From assembly GCA_037142675.1 (NCBI GenBank), contig JBAXAF010000006.1, positions 1 to 49,994 on the forward strand: a stretch of DNA of 49,994 nt. The letters are read 5' to 3'. Below are positions 27,243 through 33,613 of this stretch, piece by piece (the stretch's first letter is position 1; every line of letters begins with the position of its first letter). The stretch is from Candidatus Berkelbacteria bacterium (lineage in GTDB: Bacteria; Patescibacteriota; UBA1384; XYA2-FULL-43-10; CAINNR01). The notes under the pieces are model-generated. The model searched no databases. It worked only from the letters and a program-made list of their open reading frames with translations, and was not told the origin of the DNA. The position numbers and the translations under genes were made by a program.

Positions 27243-29639
27243 TTATCCGCATTTTGAATAACCACAGCCATGACAGACAAAGCAGCCACTTTCGTATTCA
27301 ATTTGTCCACCGCACTCAGGGCAAATTTCGGCTAAAAGCTGATCTTTGTCAATTGATGCATGTTCTTTCGGTGCCACGGTTGGATTAATATTGGTATTAA
27401 ATTCCAGATTCAACTTTTTTGAGCGTTCAATATAGCGGTCAATTGCTTTGCCAATGGCATCCGGACAGGACAATATTAGCTCGCCATTTTGCCAAACTGG
27501 GCTCGAGCCGCGAATGCCTTTTAGGTGCTTTGCCAGCACGCTCGGCTCAACTCGAGAGCGAAGAGCAATCGATATTAGTCTGCCAATTGCTTCATTCATA
27601 GCCGTGGCTTCACCGCCGGATTTTCCGTGGCTGACAAAAAGTTCGCACATTCCCTCTTCATCTTCGTTGATAGTAATGTACATGTCACCTAGTCCGGTTG
27701 GGACTTTTTCCGTTGTGCCAACTACGACTTCTGGTCTTGGCCTCGGCTTAATTTTTGTCTCGTAAACAATTTCCGTTGAAACAGTGGCTGGTTGATCATT
27801 TTTTGACTTTCCGGTCGACAGCACTTGTTCATTTCTGGATCCGTCACGATAAACAGTCACGCCCTTGCAGCCGGTTTTATATGCCAGCATATAAGCGTCG
27901 TAAATATCATCACGTGTTGATTGATGTGGAAAATTAATTGTTTTCGAAACTGCGTTATCGGTATATTCTTGGAATGCGGCTTGCAAATTAATGTGTTGTT
28001 CCGGTGTGACATCGTGGGCCGTAACAAAAAGATCTTGAATATCCTTTGGAATTTCTTCAAATTCATGAATGTTGCCGGCACTGGCGATTCGCTTCATTAG
28101 CTCAGCAGAATAGAATCCGCGGTCTCTGGCAATTTTTTCGAATTCAGGGTGAACTTCAACTAAAATGTCGTTGTCCATAACGTTTCTTTGGTAGCAAACG
28201 GCAAACAGTGGTTCTATCCCAGAGGAAGCGTTGGCGATAATACTAATTGTGCCTGTTGGAGCAATTGTGGTTGTTGTTGCATTTCGAATTGGCTCCTCTC
28301 CCCTTTTGGAGTAAACCGATTTATCAAAATTTGGGAATGGCCCGCGGATTTTGGCCAAGATTCGTGACTCCTCTTTTGATTTATCATCAATAAACTTCAT
28401 AATTTTTCGCGCCAGCGTTACCGATTTTTCCGAGTTGTAAGGAATTCCAAGCTTAATAAGCAGATCAGCAAAGCCCATAACACCGAAGCCGATTTTTCGA
28501 TTAGCCCGAGTCATTTCGTCAATCTCTGGCAGCGGATAATTGTTCAAGTCAATAACATTATCAAGAAAATGAAGCGCATCGAAACACAGCTGCTCGAGCT
28601 TGTCCCAATCGATAGATGTTTTGCCTGCAGCGTCATGCTTAATTACCTTGCCCAAATTAATTGATCCTAAATTACATGATTCGTATGGCAGAAGCGGCTG
28701 CTCACCGCAGGGGTTAGTGCTCTCAAGTTCGCCAATTTCCGGAGTTGGATTGAATTTATTCATTCTGTCGATAAAGATAATACCCGGTTCTCCGTTGCCC
28801 CAAGCGTTGTCAACAATTTTGTTAAAAACTTCACGAGCGTTTAATTTGCCAGCCGGCTTTTTGTCCCTAGGGTTTATTAAGTCATAGTCAGCATCTTTCT
28901 CTACGGCTGCCATAAATTTATCTGTTAGGGCAACTGAAGTGTTGAAGTTCGACAAATCGCCTTCAACCAATTTTGCATCGATAAAATGTAGGACATCGGG
29001 ATGATCAACGCGTAAAATACCCATGTTTGCGCCGCGCCTAGTGCCCCCTTGTTTAACGGTTTCGGTGGCGGCATCAAATGCTCGCATAAATGATATTGGC
29101 CCGGAGGATACGCCGGAGGTGCTTTTTACTCGGTCACCCGACGGTCGTAGGCGCGAAAAGGAAAAACCGGTCCCGCCACCGGATTTATGAATCAGCGCGG
29201 TGTATTTAACCGCATCAAAAATCTTTTCCATGTCATCTTCTACCGGCAAAACAAAGCAGGCCGAAAGCTGGCCAAGGTCGCGGCCGGCATTCATTAGCGT
29301 CGGTGAATTTGGCATGAATTCAAAGCTCGAGATCATGCTGTAAAATCTTTTAGCCAGTGCATCTGTGTCAGCGTTTTTATCGTAAGTTTTGTCGGCTTGA
29401 GCGATCGTCGTCGCAACGCGCATAAACATGTCTCTCGGCGTTTCGATTAGCTTGCCATCTTCGTCCTTTTTCAAATATCTGCGTTCCAAAACCATTCTGG
29501 AATTTTCGGAAATTTCCGGTTCGGGAAAATTATCACTAATTTCTGGCACATTTTTGACCAGCGTTATAGTTTCTTCAATAACTGTTTCAAACAAGGCGTT
29601 TTCAACCGTCTCTTTTTTTGCTCCAACTTTTTCAATCAT
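27243..29639 (-). CDS. nrdJ: Class II adenosylcobalamin-dependent ribonucleotide reductase with TSCPD/Zn-ribbon tail
   Basis: 'PNSPTLMNAG', 'TNPCGEQPL', 'TIAPTGTIS', 'LSCPDAIG', C-terminal CPECG...CHGCGYSKCG. Confidence 0.96.
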   Translation of the reverse strand: MIEKVGAKKETVENALFETVIEETITLVKNVPEISDNFPEPEISENSRMVLERRYLKKDEDGKLIETPRDMFMRVATTIAQADKTYDKNADTDALAKRFYSMISSFEFMPNSPTLMNAGRDLGQLSACFVLPVEDDMEKIFDAVKYTALIHKSGGGTGFSFSRLRPSGDRVKSTSGVSSGPISFMRAFDAATETVKQGGTRRGANMGILRVDHPDVLHFIDAKLVEGDLSNFNTSVALTDKFMAAVEKDADYDLINPRDKKPAGKLNAREVFNKIVDNAWGNGEPGIIFIDRMNKFNPTPEIGELESTNPCGEQPLLPYESCNLGSINLGKVIKHDAAGKTSIDWDKLEQLCFDALHFLDNVIDLNNYPLPEIDEMTRANRKIGFGVMGFADLLIKLGIPYNSEKSVTLARKIMKFIDDKSKEESRILAKIRGPFPNFDKSVYSKRGEEPIRNATTTTIAPTGTISIIANASSGIEPLFAVCYQRNVMDNDILVEVHPEFEKIARDRGFYSAELMKRIASAGNIHEFEEIPKDIQDLFVTAHDVTPEQHINLQAAFQEYTDNAVSKTINFPHQSTRDDIYDAYMLAYKTGCKGVTVYRDGSRNEQVLSTGKSKNDQPATVSTEIVYETKIKPRPRPEVVVGTTEKVPTGLGDMYITINEDEEGMCELFVSHGKSGGEATAMNEAIGRLISIALRSRVEPSVLAKHLKGIRGSSPVWQNGELILSCPDAIGKAIDRYIERSKKLNLEFNTNINPTVAPKEHASIDKDQLLAEICPECGGQIEYESGCFVCHGCGYSKCG

Positions 29640-30087
29640 TCTTCCTCCCTAATATTTTTTTCGCTTCGCTGGCAAAACTTTTCGCTGACGAAAATGATTT
29701 ATATACTGAAATAAAACGTAAGTAAGCGACATCATCAATTTTTCGCAATTTCTTTGATACAATCTCCCCGACTTCAATGCTGGCAACGGTTTTTTTGTCC
29801 AAGGAGACTATTTCGTGCTCAATGTCGTCTAGAAGTCCGCAAACATTGTGGTCATCGATTGGTCGTTTCTCCAGCGATAGCAGAATCCCAGCCTTAATTT
29901 TTTCTCGGTCATAATTTTCCAGGCGGCCGTCGCGCTTTTCAATTCGAATTATTGGAATTTCGATTTTCTCATACGTAGTGAACCTGTAGCCACACTTTAA
30001 GCACTCCCGTCGTCGACGAATGGTCTTTTCGTCATCACGGGAGTCAATGACTTTGGTGTCGCCTTTTTTACATTCGATACATTGCAT
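29632..30087 (-). CDS. nrdR: Transcriptional repressor NrdR
   Basis: Zn ribbon 'C..C...TKVIDSR...IRRRRECLKCGYRFTTYE', ATP cone, 'VAYLRFISVY'. Confidence 0.97.
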   Translation of the reverse strand: MQCIECKKGDTKVIDSRDDEKTIRRRRECLKCGYRFTTYEKIEIPIIRIEKRDGRLENYDREKIKAGILLSLEKRPIDDHNVCGLLDDIEHEIVSLDKKTVASIEVGEIVSKKLRKIDDVAYLRFISVYKSFSSAKSFASEAKKILGRKND

Positions 30088-30093
30088 AAAATC

Positions 30094-30219
30094 AAATCCT
30101 AAATTCTAATATCTAAACTCTAAACAATTTTCAAAATACAAATGCTATATTGTTCAAAATATTTGGAAATTTGATCACTTGAGTTTGTCTATAATTTAGA
30201 GTTTAGGATTTAGTATTTA
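30094..30219. repeat. AT-rich heptamer-periodic inverted-repeat element
   Basis: AAATCCT-AAATTCT-AATATCT-AAACTCT-AAACAAT ... AATTTAG-AGTTTAG-GATTTAG-TATTT. Confidence 0.75.
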
Positions 30220-30221
30220 AG

Positions 30222-30269
30222 TAACCATATCTAGTTACAACTACCATTGTCCTCTACCAGATATAGCGG
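30222..30269. promoter_or_regulatory. Tandem NrdR boxes
   Basis: TAACCATATCTAGTTA (30222-30237) and CTACCAGATATAGCGG (30254-30269) match acaCwAtATaTwGtgt, 32 bp apart, adjacent to a TTGACG -35 (30270-30275). Confidence 0.85.
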
Positions 30270-30304
30270 CGTCAACCAGGTGTCGAGCGTGAAAAGTGGT
30301 ATAG

Positions 30305-30313
30305 TTATCCACA
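30305..30313 (+). promoter_or_regulatory. DnaA box upstream of the nrdR-nrdJ promoter
   Basis: Perfect TTATCCACA. Confidence 0.55.
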
Positions 30314-30476
30314 AACAAAAAACACCACCTTGGCAGTGGAAAATTAGCTTTAGTTCTACAATTTGTGTGTTCCAGAGTAGCTAGATGGTAGATGTGGTAT
30401 GCAATAAAAAAAGAGACCACCTCGTAGGCATGGAAGCCTTTGAATTGGTGATCTCTCGGTCATGGGTGCGGTGACA

Positions 30477-30911
30477 TCAGTCGGCGTGTGGCACGTTGCC
30501 AGGCGCCAAGTGAAACTCCAGGACGTATCGCAGGCAGTAGCCGCTAGAAGGCGATGTTTTGCCATCCTTTACCCAGCTGGCTTCTTCTGGATAAGGCGCC
30601 CGTATTAGCATGTAATCCTCGTCGGAATCGACATCATGGTAGATGACATGCCTTGAGACATTGTATTGACCTCGGACACGGTTCGGCGTGCAGCCATACA
30701 CGCTGCGGTTGACCTCGCCTCCGTCTCCCTCTCTGACGTAGACGAATGACGGTTCGCCGCCATCCAGGTACAGCATGGTTATTGGGATCCGGATTGGCAG
30801 GCGAGCAAAATCTGCCCTGGTTGCCTTGATCTCGGATCGCCTAATTGCGATAGCCGCGATGGCAATTGCCACCACGAGCAGAAACAAAATCCCGTATAGT
30901 GCGCTGTTCAT
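30477..30911 (-). CDS. N-terminally anchored hypothetical protein (GC-rich cassette C)
   Basis: Start at ATG 30911 after GAGAGGAAG; own promoter 30953-30981 and terminator ~30405-30456. Confidence 0.7.
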   Translation of the reverse strand: MNSALYGILFLLVVAIAIAAIAIRRSEIKATRADFARLPIRIPITMLYLDGGEPSFVYVREGDGGEVNRSVYGCTPNRVRGQYNVSRHVIYHDVDSDEDYMLIRAPYPEEASWVKDGKTSPSSGYCLRYVLEFHLAPGNVPHAD

Positions 30912-30952
30912 GGGTAATCTTCCTCTCAATGGGTGCGGTGAATACATCGAAT

Positions 30953-31012
30953 ATTATATCAGGCTAACAGTTTTATGTCAAATAACCAGCCGCCTCCAAA
31001 TAAAAAACCGTC
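30953..31012 (-). repeat. Cassette junction repeat 1 (terminator end plus TTGACA-17-TATAAT promoter)
   Basis: ATTATATC-N15-TGTCAA-N11-CCTCCAAATAAAAAACCGTC; same length and ends as 31728..31787. Confidence 0.8.
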
Positions 31013-31040
31013 TGCGACGCGATGCGTTGCAGACGGTCGA

Positions 31041-31151
31041 CTATGGGTGAACTGGCAAATGGCCGGAACCGCCGGTTGCTATTAGCAGAGCTACCCCTGC
31101 GGCGATGCAGACGGCCAGAAACCACATCCATGCTTCAACATACCAAGGCAT
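31041..31151 (-). CDS. 36-aa single-TM small protein (cassette D; below ORF-track cutoff)
   Basis: AGGAG-N7-ATG; MPWYVEAWMWFLAVCIAAGVALLIATGGSGHLPVHP*; ends at the terminator. Confidence 0.6.
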   Translation of the reverse strand: MPWYVEAWMWFLAVCIAAGVALLIATGGSGHLPVHP

Positions 31152-31211
31152 TTTGTCACTCCTGCCTATTCTTGATGATTGTGTCTTGGCCAGACAGCTT
31201 GTTGCGTTGTC

Positions 31212-31685
31212 TCATCTGGGCATCTCAATTTCAGGTGGGCCCAGCATTACTGTGCCTCTCCCCCTGAAAACCCTCGACGGGATCAGCAGGTTATCGGTCA
31301 CGGTCACATCGCTGTCGGGTGTGAACAACCTGACGGATATATCCGTATCAGGCTCTGGCGAACCCGGAATGGCATTCTCTTTGATGGATCTGACTCGGTA
31401 GCCCTCGACCACGTTTGTGACACGCAGAAAGGTATCCACATAGCAGTGTCTAGTCTCAGGCACTGCGTCGATAGCATAGAGAGTCAGAGTGACGTGACCA
31501 TTCCGAGTCGTTCCGCGCCAGATCTCGTCGCCTTTTGTGATCCATGGCTTGGCCTTCTCTGGTGCGACTTGAGCTGAAGCAGTCTTGGGCATGTGTAGCG
31601 AAACCCACTTCTGCTGGTTGTTCGCAGCGATCAGTCCCAAGATGACGACGAAAGCGATCAGAACGACGAGTGATCTAGTGCTCAT
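31212..31685 (-). CDS. Exported/membrane-anchored beta-rich hypothetical protein (cassette D)
   Basis: Start ATG 31685 after GGAGGAGG; N-terminal TM. Confidence 0.7.
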   Translation of the reverse strand: MSTRSLVVLIAFVVILGLIAANNQQKWVSLHMPKTASAQVAPEKAKPWITKGDEIWRGTTRNGHVTLTLYAIDAVPETRHCYVDTFLRVTNVVEGYRVRSIKENAIPGSPEPDTDISVRLFTPDSDVTVTDNLLIPSRVFRGRGTVMLGPPEIEMPR

Positions 31686-31727
31686 CTCTGCTGCCTCCTC
31701 CATTGGCGGTACGGTGATTGTGCTGAG

Positions 31728-31787
31728 ATTATATCAATTAGTAATTGTTTTGTCAATCAAAAAATCACCTCCAAATAAAAAACCGTC
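31728..31787 (-). repeat. Cassette junction repeat 2 (terminator end plus promoter)
   Basis: ATTATATC-N15-TGTCAA-N11-CCTCCAAATAAAAAACCGTC. Confidence 0.8.
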
Positions 31788-31820
31788 GCGCTGAGTTGCG
31801 GACGGGTGTGTCGGCTTGGC

Positions 31821-32225
31821 CTAGAAGCCTGTTGAAGACGATGGGGTGCGGCGGTCTACCATGGACACCTTGTCGGTGAAGGCGGCGTTGGCCAGCACCA
31901 GCCAGGAGTGTCGTGTCCGATAGCACGGAGGTAGGAGCGGCGCGAATGCGTCCATGATCTTCTGGTTGCGCTTGTCCTTGTCGGCCGTCCTTGACGGGAA
32001 GTCCATGGCTTCGATGCGCAGTTCTGCATCGTAGCGCATGATGTCCAGCGGGCCGGGAGTCTCGACCTTGACCTCGATGTCGGTCTGGATGAGCTGCCCG
32101 TTTGGATCATCGCAGTTGAGGCATTCGGCGATGATTGCCGGCAGGGCCTGGACCGCCGACTGAAGTACGCTGTAATCACTGGCGTCGGTTGGAAGGAATC
32201 GCACTTTCAGGTTGGCATGGGGCAT
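31821..32225 (-). CDS. Tautomerase/MIF/CHMI-superfamily-like protein (cassette E)
   Basis: Begins Met-Pro-His, apparent tandem beta-alpha-beta layout, RBS GAGAGG. Confidence 0.55.
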   Translation of the reverse strand: MPHANLKVRFLPTDASDYSVLQSAVQALPAIIAECLNCDDPNGQLIQTDIEVKVETPGPLDIMRYDAELRIEAMDFPSRTADKDKRNQKIMDAFAPLLPPCYRTRHSWLVLANAAFTDKVSMVDRRTPSSSTGF

Positions 32226-32263
32226 GGAATTAGCCTCTCTCTCGTGAATTCAGATGCGGTGAA

Positions 32264-32329
32264 ATTATATCGAAATATTCATTGTTTGTCAATACAAAAA
32301 TCACCCGCGTTTCCTTGGGTGATTTTTTT
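32264..32329 (-). promoter_or_regulatory. Cassette E promoter (junction repeat 3) and upstream ftsZ terminator
   Basis: TTGACA-17-TATAAT (32264-32292) and hairpin AAAAATCACCC...GGGTGATTTTT. Confidence 0.8.
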
Positions 32330-32330
32330 C

Positions 32331-32384
32331 TGTCATTCCGGGCTTGATCCGGAATCTAGATCCTGAAACAAGTTCAGGATGACA
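32331..32384. repeat. REP/RPE-like doublet palindrome
   Basis: TGTCATTCCGGGCTTGATCCGGAATC-TAGATCCTGAAACAAGTTCAGGATGACA. Confidence 0.85.
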
Positions 32385-32392
32385 ATGGAATA

Positions 32393-33613
32393 TTAGCGGA
32401 GTTTGCGACGTATGAATGCCGGCACTTCTAGCTCGCCGTCATCTTTTTCGTCTTTGTCGTTTCGATCATTATTGCCATTATTGTTCCTATCATTTCGATA
32501 ATCTTCGCGTACTTCTGGCCTTGGCTCCTCGACTCGTGGTTCATATGATCCGAAATCTGGTGTATCGTAGCTTCGGCGATCTTCGCGTGTAACCATTTGC
32601 GATTGTGGAATCTCGTTGCCGCCAATTGGTCCAAAGCTTGGTCTTTTATGAAGTTTTGTATTGTCAGTTTCAAATCCGGTAGCAATAACAGTAATTTTGA
32701 CTTCGCCTTGCATTGCTTCGTCTATAATGGCACCGAAAATGATATTGGCATCCGAGTCAGCGGCTTCGGTGATGGCCTTAGCGGCTTCGTCAATCTCGTA
32801 CATCCCAAGATCTGGTCCGCCGGTAATGTTGAACAGAATCCCTTTTGCGCCATCGATTGAAAGCTCGAGAAGTGGTGAATCAATTGCGGCCCTGGCGGCT
32901 TCGATTGCTCGGTTGTCGCCTGATCCACGGCCAATTCCCATAAGGGCAGAGCCGGCATCGGCCATAATAGCCTTAACATCTGCAAAGTCAACGTTGATTA
33001 TTCCGTGCAAAGTAATTAAATCTGCAATACCTTGGACGCCTTGACGTAGAACGTCATCGACAATACCGAAAGCATCGAAAAGTGAAGTCTTTTTATCGAT
33101 AACTTGAAGCAATCTGTCATTTGGAATTGTAATTAAGGTGTCAACTTTGTCTTTCATTTCAGCAATGCCAAGTTCGGCAAGCTTCATTCGGCGCTGGCCT
33201 TCAAAAGAAAATGGTTTAGTAACAACACCAATTGTTAGAGCGCCTAACTCTTTGGCAATTTCGGCAACAAAAGGTCCGGCACCTGTTCCGGTTCCGCCGC
33301 CAGCGCCAAAAGTAACAAAGACCATGTCAGAACCTTTGAGCGCCTCGTAGACTTCTTCCTTGTTTTCTTCTATTGCTTTGCGACCAACTTCCGGATCGGC
33401 TCCGCTTCCTAGTCCCCTGGTAGTTTCTTTTCCAATTTGAATTTTTACTGGAGCTTCATTGAAGGCCAAGGCTTGAGCATCTGTGTTAACTGAAACAAAC
33501 TCAACACCGCGAAGTTTTGAGTTAATCATTCTGGTTATGGCGCTGCCGCCTGAGCCGCCAACACCAACAACCTTTATCATTGCGAAGCCTTCCATCTCGG
33601 ACCTTTTATCCAT
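32393..33613 (-). CDS. ftsZ: Cell division protein FtsZ
   Basis: 'GAGGGTGTG', 'NVDFADV', C-terminal 'EVPAFIRRK'. Confidence 0.99.

Follow-up and report, generated by a model that had tools for sequence, protein, structure and literature searches.

A variable cassette slot between ftsZ and nrdR in Candidatus Berkelbacteria, with shared terminator/promoter modules at its junctions

Introduction

In integrons, unrelated small orphan genes lie head-to-tail at one chromosomal site and vary between strains, and these systems are characterized by attC sites, the integrase gene intI and a common promoter (Pc). The flexible genomic islands of free-living bacteria, of the replacement and additive types, hold different genes or divergent alleles at the same site between core genes. 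The hyperplastic regions of T4-type phages contain modules composed of a promoter and a stem-loop (PeSL cassettes), which are placed between small ORFans (Arbiol et al., 2010, PMC2839356; Comeau et al., 2014, PMC4122927); a motif of ~100 bp is shared by ~50 sites, and mini-circles are reported to arise when neighbouring modules recombine (PMC2839356). Phage morons are autonomous promoter-gene-terminator units of deviating GC content which have been added between two genes that are neighbours in related genomes (Cumby et al., 2012, PMC3594210). Here we describe a tandem array of small orphan genes located between ftsZ and nrdR in an uncultured member of Candidatus Berkelbacteria, within a stretch of 49,994 nt (hereafter, the window) which is contig C6 of a metagenome-assembled genome of 989 kb and 37 contigs (GC 0.42). 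The sequencing runs holding this stretch are lake-water metagenomes. Sequence comparison of the locus among 12 genomes of the family supports the view that the site is a variable, integrase-free cassette slot.

Bacteria of the Candidate Phyla Radiation (CPR) have tiny genomes with few classical mobile elements and the turnover of their accessory genes is poorly understood; this locus provides a concrete picture of it, in which cassettes equipped with a consensus promoter and a terminator occupy fixed slots beside essential genes and sister species have different cargo on one regulatory module. Literature searches on "PeSL" returned virus papers only, and none of the leading matches dealt with Berkelbacteria cassettes or CPR morons (supplements were not covered).

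Comparison of the Locus With Described Systems

The closest analogues of the array are phage morons and the PeSL cassettes, and it works most like the latter. Both combine a promoter of sigma-70 consensus with a terminator hairpin between small ORFans of a hyperplastic region, and in the present locus three promoters matching 12 of 12 consensus positions stand directly behind stable hairpins with a U-run. Each gene is given its own expression and insulation by the module, which for the array is a prediction. In the phages, indels and replacements between close relatives are associated with the modules; here, two of the four breakpoints in the closest comparison fall on module edges and two elsewhere, and the 12 genomes differ in having or lacking whole cassettes. 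Unlike the phage cassettes, however, the array is part of the cellular chromosome of a CPR bacterium, with ftsZ/ftsA and nrdR/ribonucleotide reductase (RNR) flanks in all 12 genomes and no PHROG match; its conservation extends over 20-52 nt at one locus, as against ~100 bp at ~50 sites, and the hairpin is found solely upstream of the -35 element.

Phage morons are similar in having their own promoter and terminator and a deviating GC content, and the slot is empty in four of the genomes compared. On the other hand, no phage or prophage is found here, the units are in tandem with shared junction modules, and GC-rich islands occur genome-wide (11% of the genome). Given the cellular chromosome and the absence of a long motif conserved genome-wide, the array is a member of neither the PeSL cassettes nor the morons.

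Integrons share with the array the head-to-tail arrangement of unrelated small orphan genes at one variable chromosomal site. In contrast to them, the array has no intI nearby, its junctions read as a terminator followed by a promoter and every cassette has a perfect promoter of its own instead of a common Pc, evidencing that it is not an integron. An Rfam scan of positions 29000-33500, in which no attC-specific model was applied, gave no relevant match. A phage, integron or transposon origin of the array is unlikely. With the flexible genomic islands the array has in common that, at one site between core genes, close relatives have different genes or alleles that diverge deeply; it differs in being miniature (0.2-2.3 kb, made of single-gene units), in lacking a tRNA or integrase anchor and in having shared regulatory modules.

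Organization of the Array and Its Junctions

Transcription on the minus strand proceeds in the order ftsA, ftsZ, array, nrdR and the gene for a class II RNR. In the genome of the window (G000; its relatives are designated G001 to G011) the ftsZ-nrdR gap contains three autonomous units, encoding D, C together with a 36-codon peptide, and A, each with its own perfect TTGACA-17-TATAAT promoter and its own hairpin terminator (Table 1). The preliminary description of the window, made from its letters alone, had seen three apparently unrelated, GC-rich, head-to-tail units between nrdR and ftsZ, and this was confirmed by the open reading frames (ORFs), signals, composition and blastp. The array is also present at 100% identity in contigs of two further lake-water runs, supporting that it is real.

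The GC content of the array is 0.50-0.61, compared to a genome mean of 0.42, and that of the cargo ORFs 0.54-0.60, compared to 0.41-0.46 in the neighbours. At third codon positions the values for A, C and D are 0.62-0.77 (0.77 in D) vs 0.39-0.43 in ftsZ, ftsA, nrdR and the RNR gene, a contrast which also supports the reading frames called for A, C and D. The cargo proteins show no similarity among themselves (the best blastp E-value between any of the eight cargo families of the slot is 0.16), which excludes that they are tandem paralogs, an outcome that would have spoken against a gene-capture array.

Exact TTGACA-N17-TATAAT sites occur three times in the window vs 0.01 expected (100 shuffles), and these three (P1-P3) represent 3/11 of all such sites in the 989-kb genome. 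The two 60-bp junctions, 30953-31012 and 31728-31787, have exactly the letters that were first reported for them. They share their last 20 nt, CCTCCAAATAAAAAACCGTC, of which two exact copies exist in the window with none expected, and which is found only here in the genome. They are 80% alike over 40 nt; beyond the 20-mer and the two hexamers, both 60-mers are barely similar. A third copy of the junction was likewise corroborated, matching the second one over 21 nt at 90% and 17 nt at 82%, as was the presence of TCACCG behind every -10 element, at a distance of 3, 13 or 14 nt. The equal length of the junctions stood for the two 60-bp copies of the window and did not extend to the relatives, as the homologous junction of a congener has 12 instead of 11 nt from GGAGG to the -35 element. 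P3 shows 87% identity over 63 nt to the promoter in the same position in G003.

All four hairpins end in a U-run and are more stable than shuffled controls, with folding energies of -14.1 kcal/mol (z -4.7) for Tz, -15.4 kcal/mol (z -2.9) for T2, -22.9 kcal/mol (z -6.2) for T1 and -24.8 kcal/mol (z -4.2) for T0. T2 is a degenerate copy of T1. Throughout the occupied slots, the ftsZ terminator (AAAAATCACC...GGTGATTTTTTGA) abuts a TTGACA...TATAAT promoter, and this Tz/promoter junction is kept in G002, G001, G003, G007 and G010. The internal junction of G000 consists of the T2 hairpin, TTTTTTATTT, GGA and GGTGATTTTTTGA, followed by the -35 element; here GGTGATTTTTTGA corresponds to the 3' arm of the ftsZ-type terminator, its 5' arm being missing. 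Judging from these letters, a copy of the resident Tz/promoter junction has here been transposed and joined behind a cassette terminator. The composite junction is also present upstream of A' (the relative of A) in G002 and, in a decayed form with 2 mismatches, in G010, which belongs to another genus.

Variation of the Slot Across the Family

In all 12 family genomes ftsZ is directly upstream of nrdR, and the slot between them measures 241-2305 bp and contains, over the family, eight mutually unrelated cargo families. Seven genomes carry one to three cassettes with a TTGACA...TATAAT promoter, four slots are empty and one holds an AT-rich ORF. In G000 the slot has 2305 bp and encodes D, C plus the peptide, and A. 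Its congener G002 has 1654 bp with D', the peptide and A'; G001 has C' alone (1046 bp) and G003 an unrelated 83-aa ORF (694 bp). The slot of G007, assembled as two contigs overlapping by 55 nt, encodes a 105-aa ORF ("G") and A'', while for G006 only the nrdR side is available, with G', and in G010, where a contig break interrupts the slot, a 40-aa transmembrane (TM) peptide and a 96-aa ORF were found. G004, G011, G009 and G005 have empty slots of 241-597 bp, and G008 has the AT-rich ORF in 1604 bp. Thus, the proposal that cargo would vary in this interval was borne out in sister species and genera. A scan of the genome contigs with alignment A1 returned the G002 contig as the sole match, and a metagenome scan with NrdR gave 80 loci at 43-53% identity, all from unrelated organisms.

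The comparison of G000 with G002 resolves a mosaic within the slot. While the DNA of ftsZ, ftsA, nrdR and the RNR gene shows 92.6-94.1% identity between both genomes, that of A reaches 58% and that of D 54%. The A protein is 50% identical within the genus and 43-47% identical between genera, whereas for FtsZ the corresponding values are 99.75% and 86%; since A is as divergent within the genus as between genera, the A genes of G000 and G002 are not simple orthologs. Conversely, the 52-nt P2 module (GGTGATTTTTTGA, P2 and 9 nt past the -10 element) is 100% identical in the two genomes, although it is the internal junction driving C in G000 and the native ftsZ-terminator/promoter junction driving the unrelated D' in G002. 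In both, this identity breaks off at one and the same nucleotide, 9 nt behind the -10 element. The stop codons of C and D' mark the exact point at which homology restarts; it covers the peptide ORF and T1 at 87-90% and reaches as far as the GGAGG end of the 20-mer. Identity is then 37-67% in P1, in its leader and over most of A, and from the last 17 codons of A onward through T0 it is ~92%. Of the four breakpoints defined in this way, two are at module edges, one is exactly at a stop codon and one is inside ORF A. As deduced from the two sequences, no single deletion turns one arrangement into the other. Homology with all relatives starts again immediately downstream of T0.

Table 1. Coordinates of the features of the array and its flanks in the window.
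Feature	Position	Strand	Remarks
ftsZ	32393..33613	-	406-aa ORF, conserved upstream flank
Tz, ftsZ terminator hairpin (AAAAAAATCACCC...GGGTGATTTTT)	32296..32327	-	directly abuts P3
P3, perfect TTGACA-17-TATAAT, promoter of D	32264..32292	-	exact match
ORF D, 134 aa, soluble, tautomerase-superfamily fold (predicted)	31821..32225	-	
T2, terminator of D	31776..31805 (hairpin 31783-31805 + U-run)	-	
20-nt repeat, copy 2 (minus-strand GACGGTTTTTTATTTGGAGG)	31768..31787	-	
P2 module: GGTGATTTTTTGA, TTGACA-17-TATAAT (31728-31756), 9 nt	31719..31770	-	
ORF C, 157 aa, N-terminal TM helix, ribosome-binding site GGAGGAGG	31212..31685	-	
36-codon hydrophobic peptide ORF, AGGAG ribosome-binding site, putative coding	31041..31151	-	
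T1, terminator behind peptide, 14-bp stem + U-run	30998..31038	-	inverted repeat
20-nt repeat, copy 1	30993..31012	-	
P1, perfect consensus promoter of A	30953..30981	-	
13-nt direct repeat TCACCGCACCCAT	30929..30941 (leader of A) and 30462-30474 (after A stop)	-	
ORF A, 144 aa, N-terminal TM helix	30477..30911	-	
T0, last terminator, long hairpin + U-run	30404..30457	-	right edge of variable slot
Conserved nrdR upstream region, fixed right border	30228..30400	-	aligned in 7 genomes, 70-93% identity
nrdR	29632..30087	-	conserved downstream flank

Exchange of Cargo: A Model and Its Alternatives

Based on this evidence we hold, with modest confidence, that the locus is a hyperplastic slot of moron-like units whose cargo is exchanged by homologous recombination in short conserved non-cargo segments. 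According to this model, the slot, bounded by the terminator of ftsZ and the regulatory region of nrdR, would gather autonomous single-gene transcription units, each with a strong sigma-70-type promoter, a short leader with a Shine-Dalgarno sequence, a GC-rich orphan ORF and an intrinsic terminator. Cargo would be swapped between strains via RecA-dependent homologous recombination, probably following DNA uptake, with crossovers in the terminator/promoter modules, in the peptide-T1 segment and in the segment made up of the 3' end of A and T0. The modules would serve as portable homology arms, giving insulated and strong expression to whatever lands between them, and a site-specific recombinase would not be involved. 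ComEC, DprA and RecA are encoded in the genome, meaning that uptake and RecA recombination are available and an integrase is not needed. In line with the initial claim that the array lacks an integrase, no tyrosine recombinase occurs in the window, and the one PF00589 match in the genome is on contig C10. From the sequence we infer that recombination may start in the modules, that circles or transformation may be involved, that the promoters would fire and that foreign genes would be "captured" in this manner.

If the modules act as homology arms, the locus would represent the first cellular counterpart of phage PeSL/moron shuffling, and the mosaic GC composition of these genomes would be accounted for. 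In addition, the modules offer CPR genetics candidates for strong promoters and terminators, and the slot may serve as a natural "landing pad" for inserting genes.

Several observations weigh against this model. The breakpoints were resolved in one close comparison (G002), a small sample, and two of the four lie away from the terminator/promoter modules. The composite junction was found at no other locus of the 12 family genomes, so that, unlike attC, it is a repeat of this locus rather than a universal site; other loci of the genome have in common only the promoter consensus and the fusion of a T-run to the -35 element. The 20-mer and the 13-mer are confined to the locus, and the module repeats are short (20-52 nt). 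The 52 identical nucleotides belong to a presumed functional promoter in genomes that are ~93% alike and could reflect purifying selection in part. The cargo is not uniformly "foreign GC-rich DNA", as indicated by the AT-rich members of the D family (see below) and by C' in G001, with a GC content of 0.415. Lastly, and only weakly adverse, no excised circles or alternative junctions were seen in the assembled contigs of four runs, in which rare forms are dropped. For this comparison the contigs of runs X2-X5 were aligned with the array, X4 and X5 contributing a small share, as fragments only. In the Logan contigs of run X2, contigs end at 30945-30960 and positions 31736-31775 are uncovered, which correspond to the P1 and P2 modules; these gaps could be due to graph branching at shared modules or to low depth (5-9x) and were not used as evidence. 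Altogether, the preliminary interpretation is sustained in part, by the variable cargo, the identical module on unrelated cargo, the copied junctions and the second locus described below; its proposal that the module itself is the recombination unit is not sustained by the position of half of the breakpoints or by the locus-specific nature of the module.

Some of these points are also expected under vertical inheritance, in which an old lineage-specific array would have undergone fast divergence and differential loss, the repeats being the product of functional constraint and old tandem duplication with no exchange. The locus-specific modules, the two breakpoints outside them, the lack of joints in assembled contigs and the consensus hexamers with their 17-nt spacing, which are under functional constraint, would be consistent with this explanation. 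It is nevertheless rather improbable, as it does not readily explain why A, at 50% within the genus and 43-47% between genera, is as divergent in the one case as in the other, unlike FtsZ (99.75% vs 86%), the abrupt falls in DNA identity within the slot, from 92% to 37-67%, or an identical promoter module that ends on unrelated cargo at the same nucleotide; moreover, a single deletion cannot account for the difference between G000 and G002.

A third scenario, comparable to a replacement-type flexible island and improbable to a similar degree, is that whole-slot alleles are swapped via the ftsZ and nrdR flanks after transformation and the internal repeats are passengers. The mosaic inside the slot (P2 at 100%, unrelated cargo, peptide-T1 at 87-90%, P1 and the body of A at 37-67%, 3' end of A to T0 at 92%) points instead to crossovers inside the array, two of them at module edges, even though long flanks with 93-94% identity, the presence of ComEC, DprA and RecA and the fixed slot borders in all genomes would favour such replacement. 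Vertical decay and whole-slot replacement both keep substantial weight because a single close comparison resolves the breakpoints and the modules are short and locus-specific.

Descent from a mobile element (prophage morons, an integron, or cargo of an insertion sequence or miniature inverted-repeat transposable element, MITE) is highly improbable, since, although promoter-gene-terminator units with deviating GC fit the moron description (PMC3594210) and palindromic repeat elements are located at both slot ends (32331-32384 and 30094-30219), no ORF of the slot encodes a recombinase or transposase (the only PF00589 match being on another contig), 0/4 proteins match PHROGs or PADLOC and no relatives of D, A or C were found in viral contigs, the ftsZ and nrdR flanks are present in 12/12 genomes, and G002 has an array without the 32331-32384 palindrome.

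A Second Array and the Genome-Wide Pattern

A second tandem array was detected on contig C1 of the same genome (91100-92700; L123:7100-8700), with two unrelated GC-rich ORFs of 184 and 200 aa (E 0.98). The ORFs are flanked by repeated 48-nt terminators (81% alike), and a 19-nt copy (95%) of the 3' arm of the upstream terminator precedes each promoter. The corresponding slot contains a different GC-rich cassette in G001 and none in G003. That this array has the same build indicates that the architecture is a recurring design.

Over the genome, 21 of the 61 near-consensus promoters precede DNA with a GC content of at least 0.53, compared to 6.3% of random windows (p 7e-11), and 18 of 58 do so when the ftsZ-nrdR array is left out. 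GC-rich islands amount to 11% of the genome, a figure that possibly includes some conserved genes or genes for RNAs. When two regions of 17 kb were compared with three congeners, the latter covered 15% and 31% of the island bases vs 94% and 73% of the rest. It is conceivable, albeit doubtful, that regulatory-cassette shuffling of the PeSL type, reported to date from T4-like phages alone, is a general mode of accessory-gene turnover in Berkelbacteria (CPR), in which about one tenth of a 1-Mb genome would consist of self-promoted, self-terminated, GC-rich single-gene cassettes, lodged in fixed slots behind core-gene terminators and installed by transformation and RecA, possibly through circular intermediates, without an integrase.

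Many of the GC-rich ORFs located behind near-consensus promoters (for example on contigs C4, C1, C15, C2 and C10) have N-termini resembling signal peptides, lipoproteins or TM segments. As read from their sequences, the variable pool of cassettes may thus be rich in proteins that are secreted or located at the surface.

Cargo Proteins

Searches of Pfam, NCBIfam, PADLOC and PHROGs gave no significant match for A, the peptide, C or D. A and C are predicted to be single-pass membrane proteins. A is present in 3 of 44 genomes of the order, every time in this slot, and shares 50% identity with the G002 protein and 43% with that of G007. A word-index homologue search with A recovered A alone; in the ESM Atlas, A gave only leads below 0.9, the Atlas's own model being poor, and C gave no match. 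Homologues of C were found at 45% identity (P0007) and, in the same slot, at 33% identity in G001.

The region of the peptide (also L011 2811-2930) is behind C in G000 and behind D' in G002, with 87-90% DNA identity. A 1-nt indel in G002 shifts its frame after codon 19 and generates a different tail, so that its coding status is uncertain.

D belongs to a family of 342 representatives (profile search, E<=1e-3). Its AlphaFold2 model, based on a 68-sequence alignment, has a predicted local distance difference test (pLDDT) score of 95.4 and an E-H-E-E-H-E topology, superseding an earlier model from 5 sequences that was poor (pLDDT 57.5). The model displays the tandem beta-alpha-beta fold of MIF, and a Foldseek search against the Protein Data Bank (PDB) returned 52 matches at E<=1e-3, headed by MIF, D-DT, cis-CaaD, Cg10062 and CHMI (TM-score 0.41-0.68). 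Pro2, which becomes Pro1 once Met is removed, is invariant in 5/5 close homologues and present in at least 90% of the 68 family members. Neither D (in Pfam and NCBIfam) nor these members (0/68 with a Pfam match at E<=0.01) match a curated family, and a PDB sequence-profile search with D yielded only chance-level matches, nothing below E 0.7. Hence, at the level of the fold, the modelled structure of D is that of the tautomerase superfamily, and the early label "tautomerase-like" holds at this level, backed by the model, the structural matches and Pro2.

AT-rich members of the D family (GC 0.38-0.43) are also encoded in G008 and G005, at other loci. That of G005 (contig C1, L042, 1390-1791, minus strand) encodes 133 aa starting with MP, has a GC content of 0.38 and is flanked by secY and adk; it has a TTGACA-17-GATATATT promoter of its own. 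This indicates that the tautomerase-fold family is indigenous to the lineage and that its slot differs from genus to genus. The cargo as a whole probably serves accessory, environment- or host-facing functions in rapid turnover.

Additional Repeats and the Borders of the Slot

The perfect 13-nt repeat TCACCGCACCCAT (minus strand) brackets ORF A, one copy being in its leader and the other 2 nt past the stop codon. These are the sole two copies in the genome at <=1 mismatch, and they may be a recombination scar, a leader motif or the result of chance. TCACC forms the 5' arm in both the Tz and the T0 hairpin; the slot contains 8 copies of it and 2 of GGTGA. As an idea only, a TCACC...GGTGA terminator might be split in such a way that each cargo resides in its loop.

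A 54-nt palindromic element (TGTCATTCCGG...GGATGACA) occupies positions 32331-32384, between the ftsZ stop codon and the ftsZ terminator. In lake metagenome contigs its depth is 100-2000x, compared to 5-9x for the neighbouring sequence, and variant inner loops are found in other contigs, so that it is a multi-copy MITE-like or repetitive extragenic palindromic (REP)-like element common to many organisms. In G002 a different palindrome is found at that place. The FtsZ protein on this side of the slot is 99.75% identical to the G002 copy and 77-96% identical to those of other family members.

At the opposite end, an inverted repeat with 36-nt arms (75% complementary) is located directly upstream of the nrdR start, at 30094-30219. 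It is a copy of a palindromic repeat of ~120 nt, dispersed on many contigs of this genome and its congeners, including contigs C1 and C4 and G002:C62:1854-1979. Between T0 and nrdR, the region of ~170 nt at 30228-30400 had no Rfam match, and an Alifold analysis over seven genomes gave no convincing structure (-6.5 kcal/mol, with compensatory change in 3/20 pairs). This region holds the sequence TTGACG-18-GACAAT and two ACATCTAG-type palindromes, which we take to be putative NrdR boxes on the basis of their resemblance.

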